This document shows, one piece after another, positions 5,413 to 29,654 of a DNA stretch of 33,261 bases. The notes under the pieces were generated by a model. It had not been told where the DNA came from. It ran no database searches and worked only from the letters and a program-made list of their open reading frames with translations. How positions within the stretch are numbered: the first letter of the stretch is position 1; each line of letters opens with the position of its first letter. The translations under genes were made by a program, and so were the position numbers. The DNA lies in the UHGV virus genome UHGV-0185745, one strand, 5' to 3'. This DNA comes from a virus.

Positions 5413-6603
5413 TTAATTGCTGTTAACCGAGGTGACCAGATTTGCCAGGTATTTATCGGTGATACGCTGGCGCAGGGTCAGGTTTTCGAGAGGAGGCGCC
5501 GGGGTATAGTCGTAGTCGATATACAGTTTTCCGGCCTTGAGGGTTTCCGCATCGTTGGATTCTTCGCTGAACCAGCATGTGCCATCCACGATATAACCGT
5601 TGCTTTTCAGTTCGCGGAATTTGGCATTGATGCCGTCAACGATGTCGCGAATCAGCGTTGCGGTGATGGGCTTGTCCACCGCCCACATGTGCGCCTCAGC
5701 CATCGTGTCGGCCAGCACCTGCGCGGTGCGGGTGTAGTTTTCAAAGAGGAACAGCGGGTCATCAGAGCAGGTACGGTTACCCCAGAAGCGGAAACCGTCA
5801 CGGCGAATCAGCGTTGTGACACCTGACTCGTTCAGCAGGTCAGCATCGGTGCCGGACTCCTGCAAATCCCAGAATACGGACGCACTGATGCCGGTAACAC
5901 CGTTTACCCCGACGTTGGACAGCGTTTTATGCCAGCCCTGCTCCTGGTCGATTCTGGCACGCAGACCCAGCGCACGGGCGGTGGCATACGCGGTGGCGGT
6001 GGTACTGGTGACCGTATCCCATGCGAGGAAATCCGGCCAGATGACCATCAGCTCACGCTGGCTGAAATTCTGGCGGTAGGCTTTCACCTCGGAAATGGTT
6101 TTACAGCCCCATGCGCTGATATACCCGAAAGCGCGCAGCTTCTGGCAGACTGATGCCAGTGCAACAGCCACCTCTTTGGTGTCCAGTCCCGGCACACCGA
6201 GAATACGCGGTTTAACACCGGTTACCGACTCTGCCGCCAGCAGGGCTTTCAGTCCGGTATACTGACCGTTTTCGTCAGTGGTGCCGATGATATTGGAAAC
6301 GGTCTGCGCGAGTTTCGTTTCTTCGTCGTCGCCGGTGCCGTCTTCCACACGCACGACAACGGTGACCGGTTTTGACTGGTCAGCGATGGCCTGCAGCGAC
6401 GCCGCCAGCGTGCCTTTTTTACCGGCCTTTGCAATTGCGCTCTGCACATTGGTAATCAGCACAGGTTTATTGAGGGGGAAGGTTTCCGCATCCGCATCGC
6501 TGGCCGTGCAGACCATGCCGACAATGGCAGTGGATACAGTGGAAATGACGCGGGTGCCGTCGTTAATCTCCAGCACCTGCACGCCGTGATGATAGTCACT
6601 CAT
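5413..6603 (-). CDS. FI: Contractile tail sheath protein FI, 396 aa
   Basis: 396-aa ORF preceding FII; P2-like length and position. Confidence 0.9.
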   Translation of the reverse strand: MSDYHHGVQVLEINDGTRVISTVSTAIVGMVCTASDADAETFPLNKPVLITNVQSAIAKAGKKGTLAASLQAIADQSKPVTVVVRVEDGTGDDEETKLAQTVSNIIGTTDENGQYTGLKALLAAESVTGVKPRILGVPGLDTKEVAVALASVCQKLRAFGYISAWGCKTISEVKAYRQNFSQRELMVIWPDFLAWDTVTSTTATAYATARALGLRARIDQEQGWHKTLSNVGVNGVTGISASVFWDLQESGTDADLLNESGVTTLIRRDGFRFWGNRTCSDDPLFLFENYTRTAQVLADTMAEAHMWAVDKPITATLIRDIVDGINAKFRELKSNGYIVDGTCWFSEESNDAETLKAGKLYIDYDYTPAPPLENLTLRQRITDKYLANLVTSVNSN

Positions 6604-6700
6604 CCGTTTAACTCCGTGGTTAATGGGTGCAACTATTTTCTGTTGTGCAGAGCATGAGACGCTATTTGACCTGGCTGGTCAGTGGATGAAACAACAGATA

Positions 6701-6726
6701 AAGAAAAGGCGAGCAATCAGCCCGCC
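6701..6726 (-). terminator. Possible intrinsic terminator insulating the cargo island from the FI late operon
   Basis: Minus-strand GGCGGG-CUGAUU-GCUCGCC hairpin (one G-U) followed by UUUUCUUUAUCUGUUGUUU. Confidence 0.3.
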
Positions 6727-6945
6727 TGCCTTGATTTGTACTCTCTCAGTTTCCAACTGACAAATTACGTAACCAAAACTCTGTCAAATCTGACAGTCTG
6801 CTTTGAGCGAAAAACAGGTATTGAGATACATAATAAATCATCTCAATTTTCAACTTTTCTGCCACTTAACATCTTGAGTAGTAAATAGTACAAAACTATC
6901 TACTGCCGAAGGGCTCTAGGAAGTATGGTTTCTGCACAATAAGAC

Positions 6946-7089
6946 TTATATCGGCTCACGGGGAGCCAAAAGATATTCATTGCCTAGAATTTGCAGATGA
7001 GGTGGTAATCTGTACTGGGGCGGTACTGCAACAGCTATGTATATTTCCACTGCGGTAATCTGTACCAGCAGGTAGAAGCTGTTATACAT
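6946..7089 (-). CDS. Candidate small ORF, 47 aa, hydrophobic N-terminus (MYNSFYLLVQITAVEIYIAVAVPPQY...)
   Basis: ATG 7089..7087 preceded by AGGGGCGGUG; not in the ORF track (<60 aa); overlaps an inverted repeat that could sequester its RBS. A 12-bp direct repeat falls in two different frames inside it, which argues against coding. Confidence 0.25.
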   Translation of the reverse strand: MYNSFYLLVQITAVEIYIAVAVPPQYRLPPHLQILGNEYLLAPREPI

Positions 7090-7125
7090 CACCGCCCCTG
7101 TAGTGCTAATCCGGAGATAGCACTA
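7017..7125. repeat. Structured non-coding element: 8-bp inverted repeat GGGGCGGT(7017-7024)/ACCGCCCC(7091-7098), 12-bp direct repeat GGTAATCTGTAC (7004-7015, 7054-7065), and 8-bp stem hairpin TAGTGCTA/TAGCACTA (7101-7108/7118-7125)
   Basis: Read directly from the sequence; located 50-170 nt downstream of the TOPRIM-like gene stop. Confidence 0.5.
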
Positions 7126-7177
7126 CTCTCATCAAGGCTTGTTCTTCCATAAACCGCAATAGGTGTTAGTTTTAGCC

Positions 7178-8035
7178 TTAATGTAAAATTAACAATTGAT
7201 TCAGACGCTTATGTAATTTTGTGGTTCTAAATGTATGATGATCGTAACTCATACGCATATAACTATCTATCTCATCCAGACGCATGTTCTTATTTACAGA
7301 TATATCAGTTTCATACATCATTTTTAATATACATGTAAAGTCATGACCATTGCATATAGAAAAATGATCTGGCGACATTAATTCTAATTTACGCATTTCA
7401 TTATATAAATTTTTCGCATTAAAATCCTTATCAGTACGACTCCTGCTAAGCACATGATTTATATATTTGGTTTCATCAACTACAACATCTGTCCTGTTAA
7501 TACTTACAAAATTCCTGTAATTCATTCCTTTGAAATTAAGATTGCTATGTGTAAGATAATTGTACCATTTGAGAAGTCCGATTTTATAGCATGCACAAAG
7601 GATGTTCATCTTTACATCCTGACAGAATATATCGGCCAATTCCCCTTGAATTAATTTTCTATCTGTATGTGACATAATGAATTTATCAACCGCACCACCT
7701 TTTACTAACATCATTTCAAGGTCATGAGCATCAGTATAAAAAATCCCCTCGTGATTTATTCCGCTTAACTCATCAAAGTCCGCGTCACATACACCATACA
7801 CAGCATTATTACCTGCACGACGTAATTGACTAACAGCCAATATTACTTCACGTTTTCCATTTTCAGGTGATTCATAAATGATTCTATTATCAAGCCGATA
7901 TGCATTGAAAAATCGGATATCTGAAATGCCCTCAACCACAATCAATATACAACGTTGATACATTTCATTTCTGAATAAAAGCATCATACTACTCAACCAA
8001 TCATCTTCGCGAACAGCATTGCGTAATGACATCAT
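7178..8035 (-). CDS. TOPRIM-like (OLD-family/DUF4435-like) putative nuclease, 285 aa; AriB-like partner of upstream ATPase
   Basis: Conserved Glu in ILIVVEGISD (E35) and DxD in YGVCDADFDE (D84, D86) about 50 aa later, the TOPRIM pattern; ATG abuts the stop of the ATPase gene (TAAATG); AT-rich. Confidence 0.6.
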   Translation of the reverse strand: MMSLRNAVREDDWLSSMMLLFRNEMYQRCILIVVEGISDIRFFNAYRLDNRIIYESPENGKREVILAVSQLRRAGNNAVYGVCDADFDELSGINHEGIFYTDAHDLEMMLVKGGAVDKFIMSHTDRKLIQGELADIFCQDVKMNILCACYKIGLLKWYNYLTHSNLNFKGMNYRNFVSINRTDVVVDETKYINHVLSRSRTDKDFNAKNLYNEMRKLELMSPDHFSICNGHDFTCILKMMYETDISVNKNMRLDEIDSYMRMSYDHHTFRTTKLHKRLNQLLILH

Positions 8036-9280
8036 TTACTCGTTTCCTTCTGAAAGCTGTTGGCTTTCATTTCTATTTCTAATCATTTCATATAGATCGT
8101 ATGTTAATTCCCAATTCTTACTAATTACTTGTGGTGAATGAGTAGCAATAATGACCTTTTCATACTTGTTAATCTTTTGTATTTTTTTGAGAGAATCCAA
8201 GAAAGTTTGTTGCCAGGCGACATGTAATGATATTTCTGGCTCGTCTATAAGAATTACTTTTTGTGAAACAAAATCGAAAATCAAATTAAAAAGAAGAACT
8301 ATTTGGTTCTGTTCACCTGATGAAAGCAAATTACGATCAATAACATCGCCATTGTGACTTTTGAAATAAAATCCGTTATCTCTATCAATCATCACTTTTT
8401 TAAAAGCTAAAACCTTTTCTTTCAAAATTGATTCAAATAAATCAATTTTTTGATGTAATGTCTGAAACGGTGACAATTTTCCAAGGGCATCTTCAATATA
8501 TAGATCCAACACACTTAGATATTCATTGCTACTATAAAAACTTGTGCTTTTTTGAGGCATTAGCTCGTTATCAGCCTGAATAAGGCCATAACGCATATAA
8601 TGTCGACGTTTATCTTGAATACCATTTAAGCGATCTTGAATATTTTCTGATGAAAATCGTTTTGATTGCTCTAAACGCTCAAATAATCGAATAGGAAATG
8701 TAGCGTCTAATTTTTGTGATAATGCAGCGGAATCATCTTGTGCATTTTTCATTAAATATTTTAATTTTCTAGCACATAAGTCAATGACTGTTTCATCAAC
8801 AGCTTTGACTTGTAATCGATCTGCACATATAAAAGATACGTCTTCTTTCGATGTAATATGACTTAACACATCCGAAGATAATGGTTTATCAGTTCGTAAT
8901 TTTTGTTTTGGTTTAACATCCCCCCTATGCAAGCTTACATAAAATAACTCTTCCATAATAGATTCATCTGTCTGTAACTTGAGTCTTTCTTCCGTTCTGT
9001 TTCCTGAGCTATTATCCAGATGATTCAATATTAAACCATCTTTATTGGTGTCATGAGTAATTGAAACAGAGCCACCTTGAAAATCAATTTTAATAAAATC
9101 AAAATTAAGTTTACAGAGAGCATTTAATTCATTTGTAAGAATACTATTGATGATTTTAAGAATCATTGTCTTACCATATCCATTTGGACCAGTAAGCATA
9201 GTAATTTCATTGTTATCCAAGGGAATTTCATAATCAAGGAGACCAAATAGTTTTTTTACTTTTAAATGTATCAATTTCAT
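8036..9280 (-). CDS. ABC-type ATPase (SMC/RecF/OLD-like; AAA_15/AAA_21-type), 414 aa; AriA-like
   Basis: Walker A GPNGYGKT (9167..9190), ABC signature LSSGEQ (aa 319-324), Walker B VILIDEPE (aa 342-349), H-loop IIATHSP; good RBS GAGG 6 nt upstream of ATG 9280. Confidence 0.7.
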   Translation of the reverse strand: MKLIHLKVKKLFGLLDYEIPLDNNEITMLTGPNGYGKTMILKIINSILTNELNALCKLNFDFIKIDFQGGSVSITHDTNKDGLILNHLDNSSGNRTEERLKLQTDESIMEELFYVSLHRGDVKPKQKLRTDKPLSSDVLSHITSKEDVSFICADRLQVKAVDETVIDLCARKLKYLMKNAQDDSAALSQKLDATFPIRLFERLEQSKRFSSENIQDRLNGIQDKRRHYMRYGLIQADNELMPQKSTSFYSSNEYLSVLDLYIEDALGKLSPFQTLHQKIDLFESILKEKVLAFKKVMIDRDNGFYFKSHNGDVIDRNLLSSGEQNQIVLLFNLIFDFVSQKVILIDEPEISLHVAWQQTFLDSLKKIQKINKYEKVIIATHSPQVISKNWELTYDLYEMIRNRNESQQLSEGNE

Positions 9281-9300
9281 ATCAACCTCGCAGACGATGA

Positions 9301-9306
9301 ATTATA
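9301..9306 (-). promoter_or_regulatory. Candidate -10 hexamer (TATAAT) for the ATPase/TOPRIM operon
   Basis: Perfect TATAAT on minus strand 20 nt upstream of the ATPase ATG; -35 is weak. Confidence 0.35.
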
Positions 9307-9772
9307 ACCATTTATTACATGGCGCATATGAAATGCAATATATCATTGTCATGAGTTGCATTTCAAACATATGCCCCAACATCAATGCTAAATCCGTGAT
9401 TAAAATTAATAAACTCCTGGTTTTTGCAAATAATTTCTTGCCCTAATAGTTTGGAAATACCTCTTTTAAATTTATAGTGAATAATATTACGCCCATTTAG
9501 TTCTCTCTTTGCAGAACTGAACATGTCGGGAGCTACTGTGTGGAGAAACACTGAAACGATCGTTAGTGAATATTTGCACACTGGTGATAGTACTAAACAG
9601 CCCTTTGGTCATGTCCGAAAAATAGTGACTCGTACAACATGATCGATGTGATAGCATTTATGACAGTGAAACATAACAATCACCTTTGAACATTTTCCAT
9701 ACGTGCATTATACCTATTAAATCTAAACAAAACAAATAGATATAAAATATTCATCCGCGTATCTTCATGCTC

Positions 9773-9975
9773 TCATATACCACATACGGGAGCCTTAACA
9801 TCAAGTACTAAGCACGTCGTGAAGCTGTTTCCGTTAAGACGACTTTGCACTACTTGACTGATTAGCCATGCCTGCTTGTCTATCACACATTTAAAGTTTT
9901 TCATCGCTAACGTAGTTAGTCCATTCCCTTGAATGGCGTTTTACCAGTCTATATATGACAAATATCGTACTTTTT
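9773..9975 (-). pseudogene. Decayed 3' fragment of a gpD-like tail gene (last ~40 codons intact as a 43-codon ORF 9773..9904; upstream part frameshifted/stop-interrupted)
   Basis: Minus-strand translation MKNFKCVIDKQAWLISQVVQSRLNGNSFTTCLVLDVKAPVCGI aligns without gaps to the gpD C-terminus in this window (GFKRVIDEQDWTITKVTHFLNNSGFTTSLELEVRLSDV...); DNA also matches (ACGTCGTGAAGC, CTGCT(T/C)GTCTAT, TTAAAG); upstream codons read TGKTPFKG vs gpD TETPVKVSGF in a shifted frame. Confidence 0.55.
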
Positions 9976-10310
9976 CCACATTCAGTCCAATTCATTCACC
10001 GCTCCCGATTCACCTACAACACCCTCTCAACGACGTTCTCTGTACCTGTAATACCGGCGCAAATTGCGTCGAAAATGTCGTTCTGCATCGCATAAACCTT
10101 CATCAGATTTGGCCTACAATGCAGCGAATAGTCTGAAATTAAAAACCGATGATGATGGACTGTACTGTTCATGCAAGTCTGGTCGCTCTGTGCCTCATCA
10201 AGGAATGAATAATGATCTTGGCGACGTCTACTCTTGGCACAGAGCGGACTGTCAGATTAGTTTTTACTCTGTTCCATAGATGAGTAATCTCACACCAGAT
10301 CTAATACAAT

Positions 10311-10889
10311 TTATTGCGGCATTTCCGGCCATTCTATATCCGGAGCATCTTCCGGCTGAACGCGATTCAGTAACACACGGTATTTTTTCCAGTGTGTCAG
10401 GCTTAACTTTTCTTCCTCGGTAGCCATATCTAAATCGACAGCATCCTGCAGCGTGGCAATGATTTCACCTGCATATGCAATCTGCTCTTTCTTCTGAGAC
10501 TCCGCCGCTCTGACAAGCGCATCACGCTCTGCATTCTCATCATTCACCCACGCATTTCCGTTCCATTTCTGATAATCCCCCTCCGGGGAAATGGCTGTCA
10601 CGTCTGGAGGTAATGCGCCAAGTTCAGAAATATAAATGGCTGCTCCCGTTTTCGTTTCGTAGACAGTCTTTCCGCGATGATCTTCCATCAACTCCCATTT
10701 CATTTCATCTGCATTGAAAACGGCAGCAAAACCCGCCGGAATATCAGGTGGTGCAATATCTGTACTGTTTGCAGGCAGGCCAGTATACGGCGGAATATAT
10801 GCATCACTTTCGCCAATAAACTCATTGGTTCCATCAAGTAAATTGAAAACGCGGATAGTTTGTGCTTCTGCACTCATTCTGAAAGCCAT
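10311..10889 (-). CDS. G: Tail fiber assembly protein G, 192 aa
   Basis: Immediately downstream of H with 1-nt stop/start overlap; tail-fiber chaperone position. Confidence 0.82.
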
Positions 10890-13507
10890 TATGCAAGCCT
10901 CACAATATAGTTAAATGCAATGTTTTTGACGGTGTTTTCGGTATTACCAGTAGCATTTACGGTAATGGAATGCCCGTGTGAGCCAATAGCAACAGTGTGT
11001 GAATGTGCACCAATACCAACAGTATGGTTATGTGCTCCAATGTCGACTGTATGTGCATGATTGCCTGATGAACTTGTAGTCGTAGCACCTTTATCACTTC
11101 GCGGAACACCATAATCTGCACCGCCTGATTGCACGCTCACAGCAAAACCGACGGTATGTGTATGATTGCCAGAAGTATTGGTTGATTTTGTGCCGTGGTT
11201 AAACGTACTGACTGTTTTTGTCCCGTAATCAAATGAACTGGTCGTTTTCGTTCCTAAGTCCGTACTTGACGCACTGGCGCTGTGAGTATGCGATTTAATC
11301 CCGTCCTGTTCCTGTGACAATACGGCACGCCCACTGGCGGGTTTGCCCTTGATTGTCCAGCCGCGCATATCAGGAATAACACCAGAAGGATAGGCAATAG
11401 CCAGTTTCGGATATGCAGCCTTATCAAACGTCTGCCCCTGCATGATCGCATAGCCTGCAGGTGGTGTATCTGATGGCCACGGCAGCGGAACACCTGGCGG
11501 AAACGCTTCAATATTTGCCGAGCCGTCAAATTTTACGCCGTTAATTGTCCTTGGCGTTTTCAGCTTTGTAGCTGTAGCCGCATTGCCGGACAGTTCGCCT
11601 GAAATACCGGCGCTGAAGGTTTGTTTCGCCGCCCATGTCTGAGCTTCGTCGATAATTGGCACACGTCTTGTCGTGATCGTGCGGCTTCCCGGATTTCCTG
11701 AAATACGCACCATAAAAAAGCGGTAATTCGCTTTACTTACAGTGCTGCGCCATACATGCATTGAGCGCCCCGTACCGGAATCATCACTCGGACCAACTGC
11801 GATGTTTATCAGGTTGCCATCAATGACGCCCCAGTCCATACCGTCGGGAATGTTGGTCATGTTATCAAGCCGCACGGTTATCAGACTGCCCGGCACAAAA
11901 TCGTAGGTCTGCCAGTCCAGACTGGATAGTTTTGCCACTGCGCCACCGATGCCCAGATTCAGAGGCAACGAAAAGGAGTTATATACTTCTCGCCATTCGG
12001 TCCATTTGCTCCCGGCGTAGACGCGCTCAAAAGTGCGTCCCTGTGTAGTTTCTGATTTCCCTGTGGTTGTGTAACGCTGCCAGACAGACACACCATCAAA
12101 ACGTCTGATTACTTCCAGTATCCCAAGTAGTGTCGCGCCAACGGTGTCCAGCATCGGACCGTTTGTTGCCTTTCCTGTAACACTGTAAATACCGGGGTCG
12201 GTTAGAACATTTAAATCACCTTCGTAATAACGACTCTCTGACTGATGACCGACTCTTAACCACGGTTCCCACTGCGGATTTGATGCATCCCAGCTTGCCG
12301 CAAGGCAGCGGACATACATATTTCCACGGCGAGTGGTATAACGTTGCGTTCTTCCATAATTTCCGCCTTCGAGGATCTCAAGCATCCCCTGAGCAAAGCC
12401 GCCTTCCTCTGGATAATTGCGTTCATATGAAGCTATAGCCGAGCTACTGTTACGCCATAAACCAAGATGTTCGGCGGCTCCAAGCGTATTCAGGTCTATA
12501 GTCGTACTCAAAGGGCGGGTAGCTGATTGAGTGTGACGCCATATGCCCCACGGACCATCAGAGCCATTCCACTTATTGGCGAGTCTGCGTATGTATACAT
12601 TGCCGTCTCTCGTGGTGAAGCGTTGCGTACCTGCAAAATTGCCGGCAGCAAAAACCTCAAGCACACCGACAGCATTATCTTCCGGGAAATTTTTCTCCAG
12701 TGTTGCGTTAGTTGAGGTAGCTTTAGACCAGATCCCCAGATAAGCCTTAACGGGACCAAATGTATTCAGATCAGCATCAAGCGGCATTTCGCCATTGTTT
12801 TTCATAAACGTCAGGCTGGTAACGCCAACATTGTCCAGAAAAGCACCCTTATCTGGAATATCGCCACCGTTCTGGTCTTTCTGCATACGTTTTTCAGCAT
12901 TGTCATAGGCTGCTTTTACTGCCTTTGGCGTCGCTGCCAGCTTTTCACTGGTGCTGTTTGTTGCACTGCTTAACTGAGTAAAACCTTTTTCTGTCAGCGT
13001 GGCGTCAGGATGGCGGCGGGACTGCTCATGCTCTGCGATTTTGTCATCGACGTAATCCTGCGTCGCCATCACTGTGCTGGCATCAATACTCAGCTCAACG
13101 GACGCCACATTGCTGAGAATAATAACCATGCGGCAGGTCTGCGCACGTCCGGAGCCTTCAGCCAGTTCTGGTTTATAGCTTTCTGCCATGTTGGATACCG
13201 CAATCAGTGTTCCGGCATCGTCATACAGACCAAGCTCACGCATCCAGAAGCCGCCCACTTCGGGCGGTACAACCAGTTCAGCCACGATATAGTTTTTATT
13301 CTTGTTATCCACGCTGACTTTATTCAGAGCGTGACGCCAGACCTCATGCACCAGTTTCGTCTGACCGGCATCCGGCACCGGCAATTTGCCATTACCGTCA
13401 CCCACGGCCATTGCAGACAGGGTTACTTTTTTCCCGCCTGGGACAGTGGCGGCTGCCAGCTTCGCGGCTCCGGCAGTAGTGATAACGGTTTTAAATTTCG
13501 TGCTCAT
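10889..13507 (-). CDS. H: Tail fiber protein H, 872 aa (mosaic; longer than P2 H)
   Basis: Large ORF after baseplate gene I with a Gly/Ala-rich N-terminus, three ~90-aa internal repeats and His-rich C-terminal HxH repeats typical of fiber tips. Confidence 0.88.
10958..11293 (-). repeat. His-rich short tandem repeats at H C-terminus (GxHxHTV[GD]IG units; GTKxxSxF units)
   Basis: Protein [42 protein letters not shown]; DNA shows ~21-bp repeated units near 10960-11060. Confidence 0.5.
11978..12775 (-). repeat. Three tandem ~90-aa coding repeats within H (DLNT[FL]G...LE[VI]...QR[FY]TT...[VY][IV]R...W)
   Basis: aa ~245-510 of H show three related units; coordinates approximate. Confidence 0.5.
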
Positions 13508-13517
13508 TGTTTCTCAC

Positions 13518-14048
13518 TTATCCGGGATAAACAGTAATAACGTCACCATCACAGACCACACCGCCTGTATACAAACAGCCGGGAATGTCCTGGATAATGT
13601 TCAGACCGATAAGGTGGCGACTTGCGGGTTTGGCATCGGCAATCAGCCGTTCCATTTCCAGATACATCTCCTCCGTGATGCCGCTTTCCAGTACGCCGAT
13701 ATCAAGGCGGAAGGTTCCGGGCGGGTCGTTTGTCTCCCACCATTCCTTTACGTTAATGAGATAGCCGAGCGGCTCCACCACACGCCGGATTGCACCTATA
13801 GTGCCTTTATGACAGTGGATGAAATAGGCATCGCGGATAACGGCGCGTTTTGTCGCTTCCGGCCACTTTTCATCCCACCTGTCGACCGAAAACGCCCACG
13901 CCAGCCACGGCAGCAGATTTGCCGGACAGGTGTCCGGGTTCCACAGCTCACGAATACTGACCGGCGTTTTTTCAATTTCCACACAGGCTTTTGCGGCGGC
14001 GACTTCAAGCGGTGATGAGCCGGTCGGCAGCAGTCGCGAATCACTCAT
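13518..14048 (-). CDS. I: Baseplate assembly protein I, 176 aa
   Basis: P2 synteny (J-I-H) and identical length. Confidence 0.88.
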   Translation of the reverse strand: MSDSRLLPTGSSPLEVAAAKACVEIEKTPVSIRELWNPDTCPANLLPWLAWAFSVDRWDEKWPEATKRAVIRDAYFIHCHKGTIGAIRRVVEPLGYLINVKEWWETNDPPGTFRLDIGVLESGITEEMYLEMERLIADAKPASRHLIGLNIIQDIPGCLYTGGVVCDGDVITVYPG

Positions 14049-14949
14049 CCGAGCCTCCGGTCACGACGCTGTATTCGGTACAGAAAGACGCCTGCGTGCT
14101 GTTAAGCACGATATCGGCCAGCGGTGCAGCCAGTTCGACACGCTGCACGCCTTCCACATGCAAAGCGGCATAAATGGCAGACAGACGGATGTCGCGCCCC
14201 AGCCGGTGCTGTGCCGTGATGTACGCTTCCAGTTTTTTCACGGCAGCAGCGCGGATGGGTTCGCTTTCGGGACCAGGGTAAAGGTAAAGCGTGGCGTTTA
14301 TCTGGTATTCAACGATGGCGGCAGACTGCACGGTCACGCGGTCGGCCACCGGCCTGACGTCCTCGCCATTAAGGGCGTTACGCACCACCGCCAGCAGGTC
14401 TTCGGATGCCACACCGTTATTTTCACGTGACAGCACAGAGATGGTGACACAGGCAGGAGACGGACTGGTGACAGAGATATCCGCGACACGCCCGTCGGCA
14501 CTGCGACCATGATACTGATAGGCTCCCACCGACCCGGCGACGCTTAAACCTTCAAACGCCTGCTGAATACGCAGACGATAATCGGTGTCAGACTCCATCA
14601 CTGCCGGTGTCGGCGGGATGGTCGAATCATCTGCCGGGGTGATAGTCAGGCGCGTGGTGTTGTAATTGGCACCAATCACATCAAGGTCATTACCGGCGGC
14701 ACAGGCCAGCATCACCGCCCGTGCGGCCTCATTCACACGCTGACGCCAGATAAGCTCACGATAAGCATTTTCCTCCAGCAGTTTGACGAGAGGCTCAGAT
14801 TCCAGCGTCAGGGTACGGGCGACCGCCTCCTGCTGGTCTTCCGGGTAAAGGGAAATCAGTGTCGCCTTGCGTTCGGCAAGAATGGTTTCAAAGTCCAGCT
14901 CCTCGACCACATCCGGTGCGGGTAGCTGGTTCAGGTCGATAATCGGCAT
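14041..14949 (-). CDS. J: Baseplate protein J (gp6-like), 302 aa
   Basis: P2 synteny W-J-I and identical length. Confidence 0.88.
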   Translation of the reverse strand: MPIIDLNQLPAPDVVEELDFETILAERKATLISLYPEDQQEAVARTLTLESEPLVKLLEENAYRELIWRQRVNEAARAVMLACAAGNDLDVIGANYNTTRLTITPADDSTIPPTPAVMESDTDYRLRIQQAFEGLSVAGSVGAYQYHGRSADGRVADISVTSPSPACVTISVLSRENNGVASEDLLAVVRNALNGEDVRPVADRVTVQSAAIVEYQINATLYLYPGPESEPIRAAAVKKLEAYITAQHRLGRDIRLSAIYAALHVEGVQRVELAAPLADIVLNSTQASFCTEYSVVTGGSDE

Positions 14950-18654: not shown

Positions 18655-18858
18655 TTACTCCCACAGATTGACAGTTTCAGCCACGGGCGCGGTCTGAACG
18701 TCGGGCAGTTCGACGGCGGTGCCGTGCGGCAGCACCGCACCCAGTTCAGCCAGTCCCGGATTTGCGGCGAGCACGGTCTCAACCACGCCCTCAGTGCGCC
18801 CGTAATACCGGACACAGATGGCGTCGAGCGTGTCGCCCTGTAGCGCAAAGGTCTTCAT
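18655..18858 (-). CDS. X: Tail protein X (LysM-like), 67 aa
   Basis: ATG at 18858..18856 (MKTFALQGDTLDAICVRYYG...); the track ORF is N-terminally extended; start overlaps L stop by 1 nt. Confidence 0.8.
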   Translation of the reverse strand: MKTFALQGDTLDAICVRYYGRTEGVVETVLAANPGLAELGAVLPHGTAVELPDVQTAPVAETVNLWE

Positions 18859-19367
18859 CAGATTTGACTCACGATGCAGCGCGGCTTGTCCTGGATGCGC
18901 GCCACTGCCCAGCGCATATCCCGCCACAGCTCATCAATGGTGCTGTCAATGCTGTCGGCCTTCTTGTCGCCTTTCGCACTGGCATCCACGCCGCGATAAC
19001 GCTCATAAAGCGATGCGGTCGCCATCGCACACACGGCGCGCTCGTAGTAAAAAACTTTGATGCTTTCACCGTCGATGTCGTCCGCCGGGACGTCCGCCAG
19101 ACGCGTAAAACCGGCAGCAATTTTCTGTTCGCGGTACTCGTACAGCTCCGCATTCGTCTCCGCCATGCCTGACTTGATGGCCTCACGCAGACGGGCGGGG
19201 GCGACGGTCTGCTCAAGGCGCATACGTTCCCGGACGCGCTTCGGGTCGATATCGGGAAAAAAGAACGTGTTTTTAATCACCGGCTCGTCGCCTGCTGGTT
19301 GCGGGATGACCACCGTACCCTCACCGGATACAGGAGCCTCCTTTCGCGGAATAATCAGCGTCATCAT
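18858..19367 (-). CDS. L: Head completion/stabilization protein L, 169 aa
   Basis: ATG at 19367 (MMTLIIP...), P2 length 169 aa; track ORF extended 20 codons upstream. Confidence 0.82.
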   Translation of the reverse strand: MMTLIIPRKEAPVSGEGTVVIPQPAGDEPVIKNTFFFPDIDPKRVRERMRLEQTVAPARLREAIKSGMAETNAELYEYREQKIAAGFTRLADVPADDIDGESIKVFYYERAVCAMATASLYERYRGVDASAKGDKKADSIDSTIDELWRDMRWAVARIQDKPRCIVSQI

Positions 19368-25207: not shown

Positions 25208-25349
25208 ACACCCCGTCATCACGCCCTCACACGCTCACCTCCACGCAAAACAGCCCGCAGACACACCAGCGCCCCGGCACACAATCTAAACGCCATCACG
25301 ACGCGCTCAGACGCTGAAAAAATAAAATCAGCACCACCGCCAGCGCGCA

Positions 25350-25368
25350 GTGCTTTCCCCGCCTCGCC
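25350..25368. other. cos site (19-nt cohesive-end sequence of P2 type)
   Basis: GTGCTTTCCCCGCCTCGCC is the reverse complement of the P2 cohesive end GGCGAGGCGGGGAAAGCAC as I recall it; located ~170 bp after Q, as in P2. Confidence 0.75.
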
Positions 25369-25641
25369 CGCCCGCTTCATGTTGCGGTTTTAATGCAAGT
25401 GCATAAACACGTCGAAACAGCACCAGTATTGGCGTAGTTGGCAAAGGGCATGAAATCAAAACACATGCAATTTAATGCAATAACGTCAGTATTACCAAGG
25501 ACAACAGAAACTAAGGTAATATCGCATAAAAAACCGACGAATCATGTCGTAGATTCAACTTTATCAGGCAGTTTTCACCGGTAGTACACAATTAAGTCTG
25601 ACGTCTTGTTCCTATTGAGTAGATTAAGATCTCGAATCTTC

Positions 25642-25670
25642 TTGACACTGATGCGCTCATCCTTATTCTG
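25642..25670 (+). promoter_or_regulatory. Candidate sigma70 promoter for the SIR2-like gene (TTGACA-N16-TATTCT)
   Basis: Perfect -35 TTGACA at 25642-25647; weak -10; ~95 nt upstream of the ATG. Confidence 0.3.
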
Positions 25671-25762
25671 CCAAAACATATGTCGCTTTTTGAAAGTCTG
25701 TTTGAAGTTTTATCTGCTATTTGGTTGTATAGAGATAACGATGATCAACTTCGAGAATTAAT

Positions 25763-27244
25763 ATGGAAATCAAAGAATTTGTCAGCCAGTACAAAAACCA
25801 CCCAGTTCTTTTTATAGGCACAGGTTTTAGTCTAAGATATCTGCAAAACTCATTCAGTTGGGATGGGTTATTGATGAAAATTGCCGTTGATTTAACTGGC
25901 AACCCTGAATTTTATTATGATCTTAAATCGGAAAGTATTGAAGGTGACGAATACAGATACGACATTCTTGCAACAAAATTAGAGAATATCTTCAATAAGA
26001 AACTCGCCGAAGACAGAAACGGAAAGTTTGAAAGCATCAATGATATTTTCTACGAGAACATGAGTCATGGAAAAAAACTTAGCCGATTCAAAATATACCT
26101 AACATCAATATTAAAAGACTCACCTCTCAAAGAAGATTTAAGAGATGAAATTAACAGCTTAATAAAAACAAGAAAGAATATTGGCTCAATTATTACTACC
26201 AATTACGATCAACTTATCGAAAATTTATTCGATTTCTCTCCGCTTATTGGCAACAATATATTGCTAAGCAATCCATATGGCTCGGTATATAAAATACACG
26301 GTTGTGTTAGTGACCCCAATAACATAATCATAACATCTGATGATTATAATAACTTTAATGACAAATATGAGTTAATACGTGCTCAACTATTATCTATATT
26401 CATTCACAACCCCATTATTTTTTTAGGATATAGCATCAGCGACAAGAATATTAAATACCTCCTGCAGACAATATTTTCATATGTAGATCTAAATACTGAA
26501 CTAGCAAAAAAAATAAAAGACAACTTTCTCCTTGTTGAATATGATGAGGGGAACATGTCTACAACTATTTCTGAACATGATATTAACATTGAAGGTTTAT
26601 CCATTATAAGAATTAACAAAATCAAAACAGACAATTACAAAGCCGTTTACGATGCCATATCTAATTTAATTCTCCCTGTTTCCGCAATGGATATAAGAAA
26701 AGTACAAAAAGTCTGGAATACAATAAAAAGTGGCGGTGAAATCAAGGTAAAAATCACGGAAAACCTCGATGAATTACGGAATGAAGAAATGGTAATCGCT
26801 GTAGGCTCAGAAAGAACTGTTACCTACGAATACCAGACAAAATCTGAAATGATTCAAAATTACTTTAAAATTGTCGATGAAGCTAACGCACAACTCATTG
26901 CACTTTTGAATAAACAAACTATCACAAATCATGAGCACTTTCCAATTTACGCATTTAGTTCTGTATGCCCTGAATTAGAAAACGTTCAGCTATACAAAGA
27001 CAGACAATTGGATAAGATAATAAATCAACTCACTAGAATTAAAGCGTGCAAATGTGATGCAACAACAATAGATGAGATATTAGAAACAACAAAAGAATAT
27101 AAAGTAGCCAATACAATCATGTATTGTGTACTTAATGACACAATTTCCTTAGCACAACTCAGAAAATATCTTATCTCTATATCACACAAAATAGATACTC
27201 ATTACCGTAAATTATTGTGCCTGTATGATTTTCTATCATACTAA
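25763..27244 (+). CDS. SIR2-like domain protein (putative NAD+-hydrolysing defence effector), 493 aa; C-terminal ~250 aa of unknown function
   Basis: N-terminal Rossmann-type VLFIGTGFS (aa 15-23), IITTNYDQLIE (N147, D149), KIHGC (H179), FLGYSISD (aa 220-227): the pattern I associate with SIR2_2-type domains of ThsA/DSR proteins; strongly AT-rich; sits at the P2 tin/old slot. Confidence 0.5.
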   Translation: MEIKEFVSQYKNHPVLFIGTGFSLRYLQNSFSWDGLLMKIAVDLTGNPEFYYDLKSESIEGDEYRYDILATKLENIFNKKLAEDRNGKFESINDIFYENMSHGKKLSRFKIYLTSILKDSPLKEDLRDEINSLIKTRKNIGSIITTNYDQLIENLFDFSPLIGNNILLSNPYGSVYKIHGCVSDPNNIIITSDDYNNFNDKYELIRAQLLSIFIHNPIIFLGYSISDKNIKYLLQTIFSYVDLNTELAKKIKDNFLLVEYDEGNMSTTISEHDINIEGLSIIRINKIKTDNYKAVYDAISNLILPVSAMDIRKVQKVWNTIKSGGEIKVKITENLDELRNEEMVIAVGSERTVTYEYQTKSEMIQNYFKIVDEANAQLIALLNKQTITNHEHFPIYAFSSVCPELENVQLYKDRQLDKIINQLTRIKACKCDATTIDEILETTKEYKVANTIMYCVLNDTISLAQLRKYLISISHKIDTHYRKLLCLYDFLSY

Positions 27245-27259
27245 GCATAAAAATATATA

Positions 27260-27290
27260 AACCGTCAGAATGAACTGACGGTTTATATTT
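27260..27290. terminator. Bidirectional intrinsic terminator between convergent SIR2-like gene and A
   Basis: AACCGTCAG-AATGAA-CTGACGGTT hairpin flanked by an A-tract upstream and TATATTT downstream. Confidence 0.55.
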
Positions 27291-27356
27291 ATTACATAGC
27301 CCCATATGTACAGAACGCTATTCCCCTTATTCACAACTAATAAAAACCGAAGATTC

Positions 27357-29654
27357 TCAGTAATGTTCACTACTGAACGCCATAAAGTTGGAGAATCCCG
27401 GCCACTCATCAGCGACCGGATACGTGAATTTTTTCCCGTCATAATTTACGGTCGCGCCACACGCCAGCGCCTCAAGCTCCCATCGCTGCGGCCTGATACC
27501 GTTCTGAGCAAGGTCAACGCGGATACGGGTGATTTGCAATCGTTCAGACCGGGTCAGTCTGGCCGATGGTGCAATTTCATGCGGTTTTAACGGGCTTCCG
27601 TTTCTTTGCTGACGATTTGGCGTTCTCAGCCCGTGTTTTAATGCGCCCCTGAGCGCCTTCACGACCTCCGGCTCATTCCATTCGATAACACCGTCATCAA
27701 CCAGATTAAGCACTGCTGCGGCGTGCTCAGAGGGTGTGGGAGCCGGTAACGAAGTATCACCACCGGTGACCTTTCCACAGTTATTGACAGGACTCCGAGG
27801 CGCGGCGATGCCGCTTTTTAAAGTCAAAGGCTCCACGACCGGAACTTTCGGAACAATGCGCCAGTCCGTCGTTCTGGTGATATGAATATGACGCGCGCCG
27901 AGATGCGGCGCGTAAATGCCGACCACTCTCTCGACTTCTTCCTCGTACTCGTTAACTTCATCCGACGGGCTACGGGCGACTCTGACAGTCTGGCAATTGC
28001 GCGGAACATTTGCCCCACCCTGCGCACTGATATACAACGCAAAATCGCCACTGTCTGCGGCGGCGCGTGCAGCCTCGACGCGCTCGTCAAACTCATCAGC
28101 AATGCTGACGCCGCGAGGCAATTTACGTAGTTCACGGTAAGCCCCCATTGTCGGCAGGCCAACCGTTTTAAATTGCGGGATGCGCCACGTTGACGCCCAT
28201 GCGGTAACAGCCGCCGCTGTGTCTTTCAGCGGCCTGCCGGTATCGTTATCGAGCTGACCATCCAGTGCATAGCCGTCGATGTTTTTTGAAATGTATTTCG
28301 CGATATACCCCGCAGCACCGCCCCGGTTAAGGTGTTTTGCCTGAAAACGGTTTCGCGCGGCTCCTCTTTCGCCGCCATCCTCTTTGAGCGCATAGCGACG
28401 CATGATTTCGATAATCTGGTTACGCTGGCGCGGATTACAAAAAAGCATCATATGCCAGTGCGGCGTTCCGTCGTGGTGTGGCTCGACGACACGCAAACCG
28501 TAGACCTGTAAATCATTATCCTTGAATGCCGTGCGCATCAGGCTCCAGATATGGCAGAGATAACGCTGCGCATCCTTTGGATTAAATGCCTCATCGTTCC
28601 AGCCGTGATTTAGCTGGACGGTTTTACTTTCGCCTTTTCCGACCTGACGTGTCGGGTGATACTTTGACGGCGCGGTCAGCGTGATAAACATCCCCACATC
28701 ACCCTCTGCTGCGGCGTAACGCTCAATACCGGCAATGGTGTTCATCAGCTCCATCCGGCGAATTTCAGGATTAGAAATACTGCCCATCACCTTACTGATA
28801 AGGTCGATGCGCTCGCCGGTTTCCCTGTTTTCAAGGTCACACGATTTAAGAAATTCCAGATTTGCCTGGCGGCGCGCACGCACATCACGAATGGCGTGTT
28901 TACTGGCATAAGGAGAACGGTCTTTATTGACCTCCCCGACAGCTATCAGTAACGCTTCATGCCAGCGCATACGCTGGCCTTTAAGCTGATGAGTCCACCA
29001 CTCATCGTTAAACAGACGGGCAATGGCAGAATATGCCTGCCTCGTGGTCATCTGTCCTTTACGGTATTTTTTCCAGTAAAGCGGGGAAATATTGAAAGCA
29101 CGTGCAGCGCCAGCAACATGACCATACAGATGCGCCTGCGCCTCATCCGTAAACAGCGATTCTTTTTCGCCATGCGCATCCACCCAGGCATCGCAGAGTT
29201 CCTCATACATCATGAAAAGCTGCGATGAGATACGGGCGGCAAACTTTTTCAGCTCCTTGTCATTCATCCCCGGCAGACGCGCATAGTGGTCACGCTCAGC
29301 CAGAAACAGCATCGACGCTTCGGTGTTCATTTCATGGCGCTGATTCACACGCTCAATGCGCGGCCATAAACGACGCTGAAAAGTGGATGTGAGAAAATAA
29401 AACCCGTGCACCGGGCTTTTATTGCGCCGGATGTAGTCATAGCGTGAAGTAAACAGCGAGCGCAAAAAGTAAGGCAGGCGGTTAATCGTGGATAAAACAC
29501 CTTGCACCTGACGCATCTCGTCACGTGTAAGAGGTCTTTCGCGCCAGACAGCCTCGCGTGGCGCGTTCCATGCATAAGCACCGGTAAACGCCTTACCGGT
29601 GCCTGCGGCAAATGCTGACGGAGGGACAAAACGCCCGGAGGCTTTAACGGCCAT
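27357..29654 (-). CDS. A: Replication initiation protein A (rolling-circle HUH nickase), ~765 aa
   Basis: HUH-like motif PHWHMML and tyrosine pair AGYIAKYISK; ATG at 29654 (MAVKASG...); the track ORF starts at an upstream TTG (29696). Confidence 0.9.
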   Translation of the reverse strand: MAVKASGRFVPPSAFAAGTGKAFTGAYAWNAPREAVWRERPLTRDEMRQVQGVLSTINRLPYFLRSLFTSRYDYIRRNKSPVHGFYFLTSTFQRRLWPRIERVNQRHEMNTEASMLFLAERDHYARLPGMNDKELKKFAARISSQLFMMYEELCDAWVDAHGEKESLFTDEAQAHLYGHVAGAARAFNISPLYWKKYRKGQMTTRQAYSAIARLFNDEWWTHQLKGQRMRWHEALLIAVGEVNKDRSPYASKHAIRDVRARRQANLEFLKSCDLENRETGERIDLISKVMGSISNPEIRRMELMNTIAGIERYAAAEGDVGMFITLTAPSKYHPTRQVGKGESKTVQLNHGWNDEAFNPKDAQRYLCHIWSLMRTAFKDNDLQVYGLRVVEPHHDGTPHWHMMLFCNPRQRNQIIEIMRRYALKEDGGERGAARNRFQAKHLNRGGAAGYIAKYISKNIDGYALDGQLDNDTGRPLKDTAAAVTAWASTWRIPQFKTVGLPTMGAYRELRKLPRGVSIADEFDERVEAARAAADSGDFALYISAQGGANVPRNCQTVRVARSPSDEVNEYEEEVERVVGIYAPHLGARHIHITRTTDWRIVPKVPVVEPLTLKSGIAAPRSPVNNCGKVTGGDTSLPAPTPSEHAAAVLNLVDDGVIEWNEPEVVKALRGALKHGLRTPNRQQRNGSPLKPHEIAPSARLTRSERLQITRIRVDLAQNGIRPQRWELEALACGATVNYDGKKFTYPVADEWPGFSNFMAFSSEHY

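Follow-up and report, generated by a model that had tools for sequence, protein, structure and literature searches.

Studies of H and G of P2 and of stf and tfa of lambda established in the early 1990s that phage fiber tips are transferred horizontally along with their chaperones. Fiber tips decide which bacteria a phage, an engineered phage, or a pyocin can attack. In T4, the needle of gp37 holds seven irons, the receptor-binding residues map to a tip subdomain, and it is the gp37 tip that binds OmpC and LPS (PMC6957217). A T4- and lambda-based RBP family, in which the tip and a gp38-like chaperone form a cassette, was described by Magaziner & Salmond 2022, with assembly proteins of 184–207 aa (PMC9659904). 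Knob domains are represented by the R-type pyocin fibers (PDB 6CL5/6CL6/6CU2; Buth et al. 2018, PMC6116203), which carry two knobs followed by a shaft and a lectin foot. Within Peduovirus, the closest gpH/gpG systems include those of P2 (AF063097), L-413C, vB_YpM_22, and P24A7b. All of the modules and the exchange process discussed below have already been described, and the locus reported here falls within well-known phage mosaicism, leaving current understanding unchanged.

We analyzed the H–G locus of UHGV-0185745, using positions in the whole 33,261-nt stretch of DNA (hereafter, the window). Gene H is an intact ORF (10889..13507) encoding an 872-aa tail fiber protein, which matched PHROG tail fiber families with E values down to 5e-257; like every feature of H and G described below, it lies on the minus strand. 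Its stop codon (10889–10891) is overlapped by the start codon of gene G (10311..10889), which encodes a tail fiber assembly chaperone of 192 aa. The gene order, taken from the ORFs and from an identical locus annotated by RefSeq, is V-W-J-I-H-G and identical to that of P2. H thus occupies the Peduovirus gpH position, after the baseplate genes V-W-J-I and before the assembly gene G, and shares this operon position with P2 H. The prophage is P2-like and adjoins pflB in E. coli, and the identical H protein is present on about 300 contigs. An initial annotation of this DNA gave P2 H as about 200 aa shorter and P2 G as shorter too. Both statements were accurate: P2 H has 669 aa and P2 G 175 aa, differences of 203 and 17 aa, respectively. 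We consider it highly probable that H is the homotrimeric tail fiber of a P2-like (Peduovirus) prophage, built from exchangeable modules that were swapped by recombination. Judged from its sequence, H consists of five parts: a P2-type anchor, three tandem knobs, a domain here called D4, a linker, and a collar with a needle.

The P2-type anchor spans aa 1–~210. It begins with the tail-collar fiber domain characteristic of Peduovirus gpH (Pfam PF12571, E 6e-57; aa 1–151; 13055..13507), which presumably attaches the fiber to the baseplate. A single Phage_fiber_2 repeat (PF03406, E 2.3e-21; aa 170–210; 12878..13000) follows and is the last segment held in common with P2 H, which has two such stretches; these residues also match Mu fiber S (5YVQ, 8JU3). 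Identity to P2 H was 73–93% over aa 1–~205 (76–93% over aa 1–180) and 16% or less beyond aa ~210, where P2 H continues with an unrelated distal part of the Gp34_trimer type. The domain-level alignment that the initial annotation had suggested hence revealed no full-length colinear identity, with homology stopping near aa 205–210. H belongs to the Peduovirus gpH family by position and anchor, but not to the distal type of P2 H. We also rejected the notion of H as P2 H plus an insert, since only aa 1–~205 are P2-like and the other ~660 aa are unrelated. These ~660 aa distal to the anchor correspond to modules of T-even gp37.

At the distal end, aa 663–872 (10892..11521) form a gp37-type collar (D10) and needle (D11), as indicated by Pfam Collar (PF07484), the solved T4 gp37 tip (PDB 2XGF), and the Stf of the lambdoid phage Chlobot (PP925838). 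The alignment of H aa ~653–872 with 2XGF (E 2.6e-77; 63% identity, 146 of 231 aligned columns) includes both the collar and the returning C-terminal strand; in its final 21 aa, one position differs from T4, and a C-terminal 15-residue segment is conserved between H and T4 gp37. HxH motifs occur at aa 740, 782, 817, 826, 835, and 844, and the region (aa 740–846; 10970..11290) is predicted to provide Fe(II) sites from its alignment with the seven motifs of T4. The run of HxH motifs had been likened to metal-binding fiber tips, and this likeness proved to be homology: the six motifs are placed as described and correspond to the T4 gp37 needle. Six of the seven T4 motifs are conserved in position, whereas H has no counterpart of the T4 H915/H917 site, which is lost together with 3 aa of the outgoing and 5 aa of the returning strand. 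Because one T4 iron site is missing, the geometry of the H needle is not identical to that of 2XGF.

Collar, six HxH motifs, and C-terminal strand are thus shared with T4, but divergence is concentrated in the receptor-specificity subdomain. This hypervariable tip subdomain (aa 785–812; 11072..11155), which is equivalent to T4 gp37 932–959 and is predicted to contact the receptor, showed 16–23% identity to T4 and P24A7b within a needle otherwise 90–100% identical, and it is unrelated to the T4 subdomain. At the nucleotide level, identity to T4 was only 55–85% in the conserved needle blocks, and the comparisons carry no direction or age of exchange. Matches to the needle came from 641 records, T4 and lambda orf-314 (Stf, with orf-194 as Tfa) among them; lambda orf-314 is 58% identical to the H C-terminus. 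The Chlobot Stf C-terminus was 95% identical to H aa 667–872, with one substitution in the tip subdomain relative to H aa 785–812. However, Chlobot Stf is a siphovirus side fiber of 1107 aa and H a myovirus baseplate fiber, and the rest of the fiber differs. Likewise, the gp37-type tip is borne by a P2-type fiber in H but by the T-even long tail fiber in T4.

Directly downstream, G matched the chaperone family Caudo_TAP (PF02413) over aa 72–192 (E 5e-40), as Tfa and gp38-type proteins do, with a variable N-terminal half and a conserved C-terminal half. Over its full length, G showed 28% identity to a gp38 (E 3e-18), but the two halves differ in affinity: the N-terminal half was 35% identical to gp38 and 18% to P2 G, whereas the C-terminal half was 47% identical to P2 G and 23% to gp38. 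T4 gp38 thus resembles the N-half only, the C-half being P2-G-like instead. G was 98% identical to that of P24A7b and 66% identical to Chlobot Tfa, with the first ~58 aa nearly identical in the latter case. A chaperone that suits its tip should show such a half-and-half composition, which also fits the modular Tfa model outlined in PMC9608196 (citing North et al. 2019). At 192 aa, G also falls inside the length range of the assembly proteins in the T4- and lambda-based family.

G might instead stay on the mature fiber tip and contribute to, or even determine, receptor binding, like Mu Tfa or otherwise like the gp38 adhesins of the T2/S16 type. Mu and Ur-lambda Tfa, which belong to the same Caudo_TAP family as G, are reported in mature virions, where they aid host recognition (PMC9608196). 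We regard this reading as unlikely, although it is the strongest of the alternatives considered here. The N-half of G resembles the gp38 of T4, which does not become part of the virion (PMC9608196), and binding of OmpC and LPS in T4 is done by the gp37 tip itself (PMC6957217). Furthermore, aa 72–192 of G match a chaperone family, and the T2-type gp38 adhesin is described as unrelated in the gene 38 note of the T4 record. We therefore continue to treat G as a putative chaperone for the tip of H.

Between anchor and linker, the shaft comprises three knobs and D4. Knob 1 (aa 244–332; 12512..12778) and knob 2 (aa 333–428; 12224..12511), which rest on the same evidence, are readily aligned: although BLASTP of H against itself gave the diagonal only, the Smith–Waterman score between R1 (aa ~245–330) and R2 (aa ~337–422) was 191, against 26.5 ± 4.6 in shuffles (z = 35.8). 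R3 (aa ~431–516), in contrast, reached a pairwise z of only about 2 against R1 or R2 in the same comparison with shuffles. The significance in self-alignment on which the initial annotation had staked its repeats thus held for the first pair and failed for the third copy. Profile–profile comparison with hhalign nevertheless paired R1 with R3 (probability 85.6%, E 5.6e-6) and R2 with R3 (64.5%), the motifs DLN...G.LEV...QR.TT...W..W are common to R1–R3, and a five-strand pattern is repeated in R3 in the AlphaFold model at a pLDDT of about 80, the model being of a single chain although the protein must be trimeric. Because profile match, motifs, and modeled strands agree, we interpret R3 as a divergent third copy of the knob fold, namely knob 3 (aa 429–512; 11972..12223). 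H thus appears to have two obvious knobs and a divergent third one, in line with the triplicated internal domain originally proposed, knobs 1 and 2 by sequence and knob 3 by profile and predicted fold.

The repeats have the properties of pyocin-type knobs, i.e., tandem antiparallel beta-sheets of ~85–95 aa with five to six strands, structurally similar to Knob1/2 of the R1/R2 pyocins. However, sequence identity to the R-type pyocin knobs was only about 15–17%, H has three knobs rather than two, and D4 and a gp37 needle come after them where the pyocins have a shaft and lectin foot. D4 (aa 513–628; 11624..11971) is a conserved, beta-rich domain that is colinear with the knobs in T6-type gp37. 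Searches of D4 against Pfam, NCBIfam, and PDB sequences returned no match, its pLDDT in the AF2 model was 31–60 (low confidence), and its homologs are so conserved (93% identity) that the alignment is shallow. The knobs plus D4 were found in 228 phage records, Peduovirus and T-even alike, and the same block is part of the distal half-fiber gp37 in T6-type phages. Knob 3 is the most variable knob, with a mean identity among homologs of 70.7% versus 92.9% for D4. In fact, P2SIDE7 (NC_070906) is nucleotide-identical on both flanks but differs over window positions ~11907–12212 (~310 nt), suggesting that knob 3 was exchanged on its own in this relative.

The initial annotation also raised the possibility that the repeats allow length variation, which would make the knobs a present-day device in which unequal recombination adds or removes beads and tunes fiber length. 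In the wider and more distant family, the knob profile indeed matches one to six times per protein: among the best 150 cluster representatives, 35, 50, 41, 15, 7, and 2 proteins had 1, 2, 3, 4, 5, and 6 knob matches, respectively, which shows that the number of copies has shifted over evolutionary time. In H itself, the three copies share 52–57% DNA identity and a longest common word of 8 nt, which leaves homologous recombination nothing to act on, and a search for direct DNA repeats within gene H found none. The arrangement is also kept by relatives: 222 of the 228 phage matches are colinear over the three knobs and D4, and all of the close Peduovirus relatives align to H aa 1–673 as a single ungapped piece. 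Length variation is accordingly unsupported for H, and we consider it very improbable as a present-day function of these knobs.

What does vary among relatives is the combination of modules. At the DNA level, followed in the direction of transcription, identity to vB_YpM_22 fell from at least 95% to about 40% at window position ~11560; P24A7b showed the reciprocal switch, with 41–86% identity rising at ~11560 to at least 95%, a level that held through G. Correspondingly, vB_YpM_22 H is about 100% identical over aa 1–650 but ends in another kind of tip (gp37_C, PF12604) and is paired with a G of the P2 type, whereas P24A7b H has the same full-length architecture at 77% identity, though its knobs have diverged and its tip subdomain is not the same. 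Both switches fall within a conserved linker of 34 residues (aa 629–662; 11522..11623), which in T-even gp37 is located upstream of the knob module. The linker is, as far as these alignments indicate, the site of the shaft/tip recombination junction. This reciprocal switch bears out the earlier proposal of a mosaic fiber whose host-range module, the tip plus G, was exchanged by recombination.

The mosaic appearance could also stem from the choice of P2 as the reference, H being simply the vertically inherited fiber of another Peduovirus lineage. About 30 isolated Peduoviruses have the same H aa 1–650 and about 300 contigs carry the exact H protein, and because of this the shaft is a common and stable Peduovirus allele. 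Vertical inheritance without exchange is nonetheless very improbable in view of the abrupt changes between otherwise near-identical genomes at ~11560, seen with vB_YpM_22 and reciprocally with P24A7b, of the ~310-nt patch limited to knob 3 that differs from NC_070906, and of the tip subdomain, which is common to the lambdoid siphovirus Chlobot (95%) and not to P24A7b. Generation of tip variability in place, rather than by exchange between phages, is hardly credible despite the sharp bounds of the hypervariable patch (aa ~785–812) inside a conserved needle: an invertible tail-fiber segment (Mu G/P1 C type) was rejected because the H–G region (9200–13600) contained no inverted repeats flanking the tip, a diversity-generating retroelement was rejected because the window held no second copy of the patch that could act as a template, the genes downstream of G are PARIS genes and not alternative tip or chaperone genes, and neither an invertase nor a reverse transcriptase is annotated by RefSeq in the 28-kb stretch covering the window up to ~26100.

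Returning to exchange between phages, we propose the following model. Residues 1–150/210, conserved with P2 gpH, would anchor the fiber to the baseplate, the three tandem knobs with D4, a block also present in T6-type gp37, make up the shaft, and the linker connects this shaft to a T4 gp37/lambda Stf-type collar and needle. Each of the three chains contributes six HxH motifs, which together are predicted to bind six buried Fe(II) ions and thereby stiffen the needle, and the 28-aa tip subdomain at the far end of the needle would contact the receptor, by analogy with T4 an outer-membrane porin and/or an LPS core sugar. G would serve as the matching Tfa/gp38-type chaperone, its variable N-half fitting the tip type and its conserved C-half driving trimerization. 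In this model, homologous recombination at conserved sequences, i.e., the linker, domain boundaries, and needle flanks, has moved three units independently of one another among P2-like, T-even, and lambda-like phages, namely knob 3, the tip subdomain, and the tip together with G, presumably altering host range.

More tentatively, H might hold two independently swappable specificity determinants, namely knob 3, possibly glycan-binding as proposed for pyocin Knob2, and a porin/LPS-type tip, each flanked by conserved recombination handles. Such an arrangement could let a temperate P2-like phage re-assort the recognition of primary and of secondary receptors separately, from T-even and lambdoid pools, and the six-iron needle would then represent a distinct, shorter structural class of gp37 tip. 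In this locus, the cut-and-rejoin points of natural exchange map downstream of the anchor, on either side of knob 3, in the linker, and on either side of the 28-aa tip subdomain, and one and the same tip is seen to serve both a myovirus of the P2 type and a siphovirus of the lambda type. These points may guide host-range engineering as well as the annotation of prophage fibers labeled only as "phage tail protein".

A terminator scan downstream of G, where PARIS genes are located, found none. Separately, the window contains a direct repeat of 67 nt (75%) at 10060–10126 and 18815–18881.

We analyzed tail fiber gene H of the P2-like Escherichia coli prophage, whose insertion site is adjoined by pflB. 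Several complete genomes contained the 10000–14100 stretch unchanged, and at least 80% of this stretch was present in 96 of 5,426 genomes. The minus strand encodes V-W-J-I, followed by H (10889–13507, 872 aa) and then by G (10311–10889, 192 aa), the tail fiber assembly chaperone; both lengths agree with the initial annotation. Their phage P2 counterparts have 669 and 175 aa, respectively. The exact H sequence occurred on approximately 300 public contigs, with "phage tail protein" as its sole annotation. Despite these contigs, it formed a 90%-identity cluster by itself, whereas the cluster of G had 456 members, which fits a picture of H alleles that diverge through the exchange of whole modules and not through point changes. 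H was 73–93% identical to canonical P2 H up to aa ~210 and at most 16% identical beyond. H is therefore not P2 H with an insertion; the two have nothing in common except the anchor and a single Phage_fiber_2 repeat.

The internal part of H contains three tandem knob domains. Knob 1 (aa ~245–330) and knob 2 (aa ~337–422) were clearly similar (z = 35.8; Smith-Waterman, 500 shuffles), whereas knob 3 (aa ~431–516) scored only ~2 against either. Profiles built from homologues related knobs 1 and 2 with 99.8% probability, knobs 1 and 3 with 85.6% (E = 5.6e-6), and knobs 2 and 3 with 64.5%, and revealed no relation of any knob to D4, the conserved domain at aa 513–628. All three knobs have the motifs DLN...G.LEV...QR.TT...W..W in common. 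In an AlphaFold2 model of aa 215–661 (30-sequence input alignment), they appeared as successive units sharing a five-strand pattern (pLDDT ~80), while aa 514–654 were poorly predicted. We regard knob 3 as a third copy because of its profile similarity, common motifs, and modeled strand pattern. Structural matches of the knobs included phi812 receptor-binding proteins, phage K gp144, T4 gp34, and the R1 pyocin fiber 6CL5 (Foldseek, E = 4e-6), overlapping several knob-like structures of Buth et al., namely R pyocin fibers, phi11 gp45 (5EFV), phage K gp144 (5M9F), and T4 gp34 (PMC6116203). Close homologues carry the NCBI name "pyocin knob domain-containing protein". Therefore, the triplicated internal domain previously noted is real, its third copy being divergent. 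Conservation among homologues was 71–79% for the knobs and 93% for D4.

The accompanying suggestion that these repeats allow length variation was not supported for this gene. The three copies have 52–57% DNA identity with a longest shared word of 8 nt, no direct DNA repeats were found within the H gene, and relatives were uniformly colinear. Copy number varied only across the distant family: among the best 150 of 445 cluster representatives retrieved by the knob profile (E ≤ 0.001), 35, 50, 41, 15, 7, and 2 proteins had one to six knob matches, respectively.

The C-terminal part of H (aa 653–872) matched the T4 gp37 tip structure 2XGF with 63% identity (E = 2.6e-77), with a conserved collar and one difference in the final 21 aa. 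The T4 needle binds seven buried irons through HxH motifs at 883, 915, 929, 966, 980, 989, and 998 (PMC6957217). H has six (740, 782, 817, 826, 835, and 844). The HxH run, which the initial annotation likened to metal-binding fiber tips, lies in a segment homologous to the iron needle and is predicted to act likewise. At the position of T4 H915-x-H917, H has a single His, and this loss is accompanied by short deletions in both the outgoing and returning strands. The six-motif form also occurs in H of the Peduovirus P24A7b and in gp37 of Tequatrovirus Lv5cm. The sole strongly divergent stretch of the needle, aa ~785–812, is the counterpart of T4 subdomain 932–959, to which LPS- and OmpC-binding residues map (PMC6957217).

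Three knobs plus D4 were found in 228 phage records, 222 of them with a colinear full-length match; approximately 30 were Peduoviruses and approximately 196 were T-even gp37s (e.g., T6, RB3, and RB33; 57–60% identity). The needle was present in 641 records, T4 gp37 and lambda orf-314 among them. Thus, the distal ~650 aa of H consist of modules from which T-even distal half-fibers and lambdoid side fibers are also built.

The exchange proposed in the initial annotation was supported by recombination boundaries in the DNA. The shaft (aa 1–650) was ~100% identical to that of Yersinia phage vB_YpM_22 and 85–97% identical to those of ~30 other Peduoviruses. Past this point, these phages have another tip (gp37_C, PF12604) together with a P2-type G. 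Nucleotide identity to vB_YpM_22 was at least 95% down to ~11740 and 85% to ~11560; between ~11560 and the end of G, it was ~40%. The opposite trend held for P24A7b, with 41–86% upstream of ~11560 and at least 95% from there to 10311, except in a patch at ~11080–11200. This shaft/tip junction falls in a conserved linker with a 28-residue motif. A 23-residue linker motif (11522–11590, minus strand) follows D4 in H and precedes the knob module in T-even gp37 (Lv5cm, L006, aa 68–106; JK23, P0106, aa 63–106); it appears to be a portable junction sequence next to modules. In addition, the P2-like phage NC_070906 ("P2" isolate P2SIDE7) diverged from the window only in a ~310-nt patch (~11907–12212, minus strand), with nucleotide identity on either side. 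This patch extends from exactly the DLN motif of knob 3 to LDWQTYDF, and knob 3 thus behaves as its own cassette. The tip (aa 667–872), including the hypervariable subdomain, was 95% identical to the side tail fiber of Escherichia phage Chlobot, a lambda-like siphovirus with the layout J-lom-stf-tfa-int, with one substitution in the predicted receptor-contact subdomain. In the Chlobot locus (PP925838, 1298–5190), the side tail fiber has 1107 aa, with the H-like tip at its end. The locus thus combines a shaft of the vB_YpM_22 type with a tip subdomain like that of Chlobot, whereas the needle flank and G are of the P24A7b type. Two other sources of variation, an invertible segment and a diversity-generating retroelement, were rejected, as no suitable repeats were found and no invertase or reverse transcriptase is listed in the RefSeq annotation of the stretch ending at ~26100.

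G contains a Caudo_TAP domain (E = 5e-40) and was 98% identical to P24A7b G. The first 125 aa of G were closer to T4 gp38 (35% identity) than to P2 G (18%), and the reverse held for the C-terminal 67 aa (23% and 47%, respectively). G matched Lv5cm gp38 over its full length (28% identity, E = 3e-18) and Chlobot Tfa with 66% identity, nearly identically over the first ~58 aa. Tfa proteins are described as modular, with a variable fiber-binding N-terminal domain and a conserved trimerizing C-terminal domain (PMC9608196, summarizing North et al. 2019). In the "T4- and lambda-based RBP family", a gp38-like gene (184–207 aa) directly downstream travels with the final ~215 aa of the fiber (PMC9659904). 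These features of G fit both descriptions.

H is very probably a trimer in which the P2-type N-terminus would attach the fiber to the baseplate, a beaded shaft would be formed by the knobs and D4, six Fe(II) ions, each held by HxH of three chains, would keep the needle rigid, the 28-aa tip subdomain would bind the receptor, and G would fold the needle. Beyond the homologies and breakpoints observed in H, we infer from T4 and related systems that the needle binds iron, that the tip contacts a receptor, that folding depends on the chaperone, and that host range is affected. All components and the exchange process are already documented, and the isolated phage P24A7b has the same overall architecture (77% identity). 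The modest interest lies in the unusually clean breakpoints, including the single-knob cassette, and in the occurrence of the same predicted receptor-binding tip in both a myovirus of the P2 type and a siphovirus of the lambda type.

The interval from G to the tail sheath gene (5413–6603), occupied in P2 by fun(Z), contains a PARIS-like defense pair (7178–9280, minus strand). The pair consists of an AriA-type AAA ATPase (8036–9280; PADLOC AriA, E = 1.9e-25) and an AriB/DUF4435 protein (7178–8035; PADLOC AriB, E = 2.6e-21), within a low-GC island (~6600–10300; 31–35% vs. ~55% in phage genes). The ~1 kb between AriA and G (9300–10310) contained only small ORFs (67–72 aa), and a simple scan of it found no terminator-like site. 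A 67-nt direct repeat (75% identity) links non-coding 10060–10126, downstream of G, with 18815–18881 inside the late gene region; it could be the relic of a gene or a coincidence. A 493-aa SIR2-family protein (25763–27244, plus strand; PADLOC PDC-S25, E = 6e-157; Pfam SIR2_2) is encoded immediately after the portal gene, in another low-GC cargo island of the prophage (~25300–27400).
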